A stretch of 6,476 nucleotides of DNA from IMG/VR virus record IMGVR_UViG_2663763280_000003, positions 1-6,476 of that record; one strand, written 5' to 3'. Below the pieces are notes generated by a model, which did no database searches, had not been told where the DNA came from, and was given only the letters and a program-made list of their open reading frames with translations. Source of the stretch: a virus (Duplodnaviria > Heunggongvirae > Uroviricota > Caudoviricetes). Position numbers and translations under genes: made by a program. Shown in pieces: positions 4,028 to 4,566 of the stretch; positions within the stretch are counted from its first letter, which is position 1; each line of letters starts with the position of its first letter.

Positions 4028-4285
4028 GTGACCGTGAGAGCACTACTGACCCCTGAAATTGCCCCGCGTATGGGGATCGTATTGTTCAGACCAGGTTCAG
4101 AGCTGATGCCCCTGTTTATGCAGGGGCGTGTACTGCTGGAGCCTGAGCCGGAACGTTATTCATCTTTCGCCAGTGGTGCCGTTCCCGCGGCATCACAACC
4201 GCTGGCGGATGATCCTGCTGTTCGGGCCGTGTTCCGCAATGAGGCAGTGATCCGTCGTGCTGGTGGCGTGGAATGTCTTGAAAGC
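4028..4285 (+). CDS. hypothetical protein, 5' portion only; reading frame runs into the N-containing breakpoint
   Basis: GTG starts at 4028/4034 immediately after the KilA-N stop, after a GAGGTGA motif. The frame is open to the N run; no recognisable motif. Confidence 0.35.
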
Positions 4286-4295
4286 NNNNTACGNN
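4286..4295. other. ambiguous bases (nnnntacgnn) coinciding with a sequence breakpoint
   Basis: N characters are directly visible. Sequence to the left is the phage ORF; sequence to the right is the gltX 5' end on the opposite strand. Confidence 0.9.
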
Positions 4296-4353
4296 CGCCG
4301 CCAACGTGCAGATAGCCTGTTGGGCTTGGCGCGAAGCGAGTTTTGATTTTCAT
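4286..4353 (-). pseudogene. gltX: 5' fragment of glutamyl-tRNA synthetase gene (first ~20 codons only; truncated at the breakpoint)
   Basis: The minus strand from the ATG (complement of 4351-4353) encodes [19 protein letters not shown], the GltX N-terminus including the class I HIGH-type motif region. Translation beyond the Ns no longer resembles GltX. Confidence 0.8.
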
Positions 4354-4566
4354 GAAATGGCCTTACGTTTAGAAAGATGCCGACAACCGGCAAATCCTGG
4401 AAAAATTGAGTGGGCGATATTCTATCACTCCCGCCTGATTCCTCAATGTAGTTCGGGTTTCTACCTTACGCATTATTGTTTTCGTTGACAAATTGCGCAA
4501 CACGGTCTGTTTTGCGATCATCTTGCTTAAATTTACGACGAACGAACAATTTCTTTAGAAAATGCG

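Follow-up and report, generated by a model that had tools for sequence, protein, structure and literature searches.

The stretch of DNA analysed here (the window, 6,476 bp) is, in reverse complement, the entire contig CCCB01000447.1 of GCA_000945835.1, an E. coli draft assembly with at least 447 contigs. This identity comes from exact look-up of its open reading frames (ORFs). A 77-residue hybrid ORF on the minus strand (5834-6067) occurs on one contig only among roughly 15 billion proteins, and that contig is CCCB01000447.1. Nine other chimeric ORFs of the window have no entry among these proteins, probably because other starts were chosen in gene calling. Two long blocks lie in the window, a prophage stretch at 251-4285 and a chromosomal stretch with the 5' end of gltX at 4296-5330, and between them is a zone that contains N bases.

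The prophage block (251-4285, plus strand, 4,035 bp) matches the early-right region of SfII/CPS-53-like prophages. It carries the 3' part of a DUF4222 gene, an HTH replication-type protein, a homologue of PerC/yfdN, a Dam methylase, a LexA-like protein, RusA, KilA-N and the 5' part of a DUF968 gene. DNA identity over the block is 98.3% to many E. coli prophages, taking the best complete genomes, and 97.3% to Shigella phage SfII. In both this identity (97-98% over 251-4285) and its gene order, from the O-like HTH protein through yfdN/PerC, Dam, LexA-like, RusA and KilA-N to DUF968, the block resembles the early-right operon of SfII/CPS-53-type lambdoid prophages. Unlike in those prophages, where the module is followed by the remainder of DUF968 and by an antiterminator gene, the module in the window is severed at both ends by false joins. 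The DUF968 fragment (4034-4285, plus strand) comprises 84 of 329 codons, and all 84 residues are identical to the corresponding CDS of the best-matching prophage in a complete genome (L001). A GTG at 4028 opens the plus-strand frame, and related genomes annotate the start at 4034.

Three further features of the block are recorded here as observations in their own right. The PerC-family yfdN homologue (1353-1847) has a CAG-to-TAG nonsense change at 1653 (stop codon 1653-1655) relative to the 164-aa version in FDAARGOS_1284, leaving a product of 98-100 aa; because at least 24 other contigs encode an identical 98-aa protein, we regard the shortened gene as a natural allele and not as an assembly error. 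The 313-aa HTH_36 replication-type protein (ORF 415-1356) includes a low-complexity stretch rich in Ser, Asp, Lys and Pro at about 720-900, with short repeats of the kind DPSKSDASKSDPSKFDASKS, and the remaining frames across this stretch contain matching repetitive ORFs. Finally, 20 of the 68 mismatches to the L001 prophage fall in a single 250-nt bin (2750-3000) at the LexA-like/RusA boundary, a cluster that fits ordinary lambdoid mosaicism.

On the other side of the Ns, the native chromosomal block (4296-5330) contains the 5' end of gltX (minus strand), valU, valX, valY, lysV, RtT and the last 18 codons of xapR (minus strand). It is 100% identical to many E. coli chromosomes and its arrangement is exactly the native one; its tRNAs and RtT are supported by Rfam tRNA and RtT matches. 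The gltX gene, which encodes glutamate--tRNA ligase, is represented by 4290-4353 on the minus strand, with its ATG at 4353 and 19 clear codons plus two to three that include Ns, of a total of 471. A direct repeat (4992-5052 and 5148-5208) made up of the lysV 3' end and its terminator flanks RtT (Rfam RF00391, 5040-5165); this repeat is native and is present in K-12 too. At 5330 the block is severed and joined to ydbH.

Between the two blocks lies the junction zone, at 4286-4295. A scan of the whole window found exactly six N bases, at 4286-4289 and 4294-4295, with TACG between them. The zone, NNNN TACG NN in the window, lines up in register with TGGT TACT TC of the phage parent and with GCAG TACG CG of the gltX parent. 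The parents thus disagree at all six N positions and agree at three of the four called bases (Fisher exact p = 0.033). The remaining called base, 4293, is G as in gltX where the phage parent has T, and so is discordant and yet not written as N. The DNA match to the gltX locus starts at 4290, so that TACG belongs to gltX, and identity is 100% from 4296 to 5330. The preliminary description had reported that the phage ORF stops at the N zone and that only about the first 20 codons of gltX follow on the opposite strand. Both statements hold, as the DUF968 match runs for 84 of 84 residues up to 4285 and is then lost, and 19-22 of the 471 gltX codons are present.

We then placed the whole window on its sources by local blastn against K-12 regions, a search of the complete-genome collection and alignments at each junction. 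The resulting map shows 11 unrelated E. coli pieces and a short adapter linker. The left end of the contig is a fragment of F-plasmid trbC (1-129), followed by a fragment of maeA in the minus sense (129-251; K-12 position 1.555 Mb), which is joined to the prophage block (251-4285). After the gltX-to-xapR stretch (4286/4290-5330; 2.520 Mb) come fragments of ydbH (5330-5602; 1.444 Mb), hycE (5603-5692; placed by blastn and alignment), glrR (about 5683-5883; 2.688 Mb), mrdA (5881-6068; 0.667 Mb), gadB (6064-6223; 1.571 Mb) and der (6225-6368; 2.636 Mb). A linker without an assigned genomic source (6369-6388) and a fragment of envZ (6389-6476, plus strand) complete the right end. The source loci therefore comprise seven distant K-12 positions together with the F plasmid, the prophage, hycE and envZ. 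At the blunt joins the parent sequences share 0-5 bases by coincidence; the exception is an imperfect overlap of about 10 nt between hycE and glrR, in which 7 of 10 bases agree. The short pieces (trbC, maeA, ydbH, hycE, glrR, mrdA, gadB, der and envZ) are read-sized, at 88-273 nt. Real genomes match the fragments of der, hycE and ydbH at 100% identity, and trbC and envZ each have one mismatch to their best match. The chimeric end blocks measure 250-251 nt on the left and 252-253 nt on the right, near the length of MiSeq 251-cycle reads; the fit is inexact, and as a clue to read length it is suggestive only.

The linker between der and envZ consists of seven unassigned bases (GGTGAAT), the sequence AGATCGGAAGAG at 6376-6387 and a single unassigned A (6388), on the plus strand. 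The 12-nt sequence is an exact copy of the first 12 nt of the Illumina TruSeq adapter, for which about 0.0008-0.01 chance matches would be expected, and in the junction alignments it is found in neither the der nor the envZ reference. The stub is adapter contamination inside the deposited contig. As in other deposited assemblies with such contamination, the start of an adapter stands between two unrelated genomic fragments; unlike in those, the stub here is only 12 nt long and lies inside the contig instead of at one of its ends. Being so short and internal, it would probably escape standard screens for vector and adapter.

Other genomes offer an independent view of the phage/gltX junction. 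In no complete E. coli genome does a single place account for 80% or more of the window. A 510-nt query centred on the Ns was matched at 80% or more coverage in 0 of 5,426 complete E. coli genomes; in each of them it aligns with one half only, that of the phage or that of gltX. Among phage records, none has the junction, and all matches, that of SfII included, end at 4285. Exact junction patterns gave 0 matches in viral contigs, in genome contigs (one representative per species) and in metagenome contigs, which shows just that the joins are not widespread and is otherwise uninformative.

Sequence beyond the breakpoints is available from related DNA. In the 14.3-kb Logan contig ERR738825_2, positions 4893-8927 correspond to window positions 251-4285 with 4035 of 4035 bases identical (100.000%), and this independent assembly continues as ordinary phage sequence beyond both breakpoints, with an integrase about 5 kb upstream of the block end opposite the gltX join. 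The source of ERR738825 may be the same isolate as that of GCA_000945835.1, or a very close relative. Of the contigs besides CCCB01000447.1 that carry the identical 98-aa phage protein, nine were compared, ERR738825_2 among them. In eight of the nine KilA-N is followed by the full 329-aa DUF968 gene; in the ninth the gene ends with the contig, at 291 aa. Wherever these contigs extend far enough, an antiterminator gene follows DUF968. In the finished genome FDAARGOS_1284 the prophage continues with lysis genes and about 25 kb of late genes, beyond which lies the vat island; its surroundings are the vat island and the yagU-ecp genes, and gltX is not adjacent.

Taken together, these results lead us to conclude, with a probability of about 0.95, that CCCB01000447.1 is a chimeric, misassembled contig, a technical artefact, and that the phage/gltX junction represents no real insertion or deletion. 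The contig has segments from non-adjacent loci and replicons, a junction that is absent from independent assemblies, and technical sequence within it. The preliminary description had already favoured misassembly at this junction, a preference borne out by the absence of the junction from the 5,426 genomes and the phage records and by the reading of ERR738825_2 past 4285. It had understated the case: about nine further joins of unrelated loci and an adapter stub lie in the same contig, so that everything outside the two long blocks is chimeric too.

In the sequence of events that we propose, two genuine pieces, a 4.0-kb SfII-like prophage stretch and a 1.0-kb gltX-valU-lysV-xapR stretch, would have been falsely joined to each other, and both would also have been joined to read-sized fragments of unrelated chromosomal and plasmid genes, in one case with an adapter remnant at the join. 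Prophage and gltX would both be untruncated in the organism. The joins could have arisen as ligation concatemers or chimeric reads in the library, or as false joins made by an assembler, a scaffolder or a gap closer. The read-sized pieces, the 250-253-nt end blocks and the embedded adapter stub suggest that library fragments were chimeric or concatenated, or that reads were strung together. One misjoin at a genomic repeat is a less likely origin, and with its density of joins the contig resembles a concatemer of read-sized fragments more than the product of one such misjoin. The joins presumably lack read support. Two other origins were considered and set aside: a restriction-site or proximity-ligation origin (Hi-C, 3C), as the parent sequences at about 20 fragment ends have no common motif, and reference-guided ordering of contigs, as K-12 coordinates along the window are non-monotonic. 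A search of the literature on assembly CCCB01 / GCA_000945835 and run ERR738825, the pipeline included, found nothing relevant.

In several respects the contig is typical of chimeric contigs in short-read bacterial drafts. Its adjoining segments derive from a plasmid or from loci separated by megabases, its blunt joins show chance identity over a few bases at most (the one imperfect overlap of about 10 nt apart), and it is a small, high-numbered contig of a fragmented assembly in which genes, essential ones included, are cut in mid-ORF. What sets it apart is an unusually high density of joins, about ten in the 2.4 kb outside the long blocks.

The Ns themselves allow more than one reading. In register with both parents and confined to positions where these differ, they are most simply explained as consensus conflicts at a false overlap: the two parents would have been overlaid across about 10 bases that agree by chance only, at TAC, and the consensus caller would have written N where they conflict. 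This explanation leaves one point unexplained, namely that Ns occur at just one of about ten joins, the others being clean. The same point, together with the one discordant position that was called, favours plain no-calls or low-quality bases in a single junction-supporting read or a long read, with the join still artefactual, and the contig-end blocks of 250-253 nt do resemble single MiSeq-length reads. We consider this possible although the less probable account, because the Ns fall on six parent-discordant positions and on none of the three concordant ones (p = 0.033). It is far less probable, and in our view very unlikely, that the Ns are a scaffolding placeholder between true neighbours, with the rest of the DUF968 gene and of gltX hidden in a gap of unsized length. 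The N zone does span exactly 10 positions, which resembles the minimal gap placeholders of some assemblers, and like the N runs of scaffold gaps it sits at the boundary of two independently assembled pieces. Unlike such runs, the Ns in the window have called bases among them, keep the register of both parents and take the place of known bases. Since TACG is in register with gltX and TAC with the phage, no sequence is missing; the Ns swap bases one for one, without loss on either side, and therefore do not stand for a gap of unsized length. Given this register, the scaffolding variant raised in the preliminary description is not supported. Furthermore, finished genomes do not place the phage locus next to that of gltX: the two blocks lie within joining distance in no complete genome, the complete-genome prophage has about 25 kb of late genes after DUF968 and adjoins the vat island and yagU-ecp, and the remainder of the contig follows no reference order. 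The late genes and vat island that follow the prophage in FDAARGOS_1284 likewise led us to reject phage and gltX as true neighbours.

A genuine rearrangement, by insertion of part of a prophage into gltX, by recombination between the two, or by capture of a second, non-functional copy of gltX-valU next to the prophage, has in its favour that the join is present in the deposited sequence; moreover, lambdoid prophages are mosaic and often adjoin tRNA genes. We nonetheless regard it as extremely improbable. The break lies at codon 84 of an internal early gene and not at a phage end, which argues against integration of a prophage into gltX, and the join has no integrase, att repeat, IS element or target duplication. 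The join is found in none of the 5,426 genomes, and the identical phage block continues normally in ERR738825_2. The suggestion that the gltX locus in the window might be a non-functional duplicate finds no support, as this supposed duplicate is itself cut at 5330 and fused to ydbH, with six more unrelated fragments and the adapter beyond. Breakpoints fall within gltX, mrdA and der, all of which are essential in E. coli K-12 (Keio collection), and because gltX is essential there a true loss of the gene is not expected. It is no more probable that the mosaic is a DNA molecule truly in the sample, for example a concatemer that arose in vivo by ligation or recombination of short genomic fragments, or that was packaged as such; were it so, the junctions would record illegitimate end-joining in E. 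coli and no computational error.

For a chimeric contig of technical origin, the value of the finding is that of a quality flag only; it points to no biological mechanism or feature and supports no conclusion on gltX or the prophage. Isolated Ns within a contig can flag a false overlap and need not flag a gap. Spurious hybrid proteins have already been called from this contig, including a 93-aa DUF968/anti-gltX fusion and fragments of 77 aa and 104 aa. CCCB01000447.1 is thus unfit for calls of gene content, synteny, prophage integration or pseudogenes in E. coli, and the contig and its hybrid proteins should be discarded.
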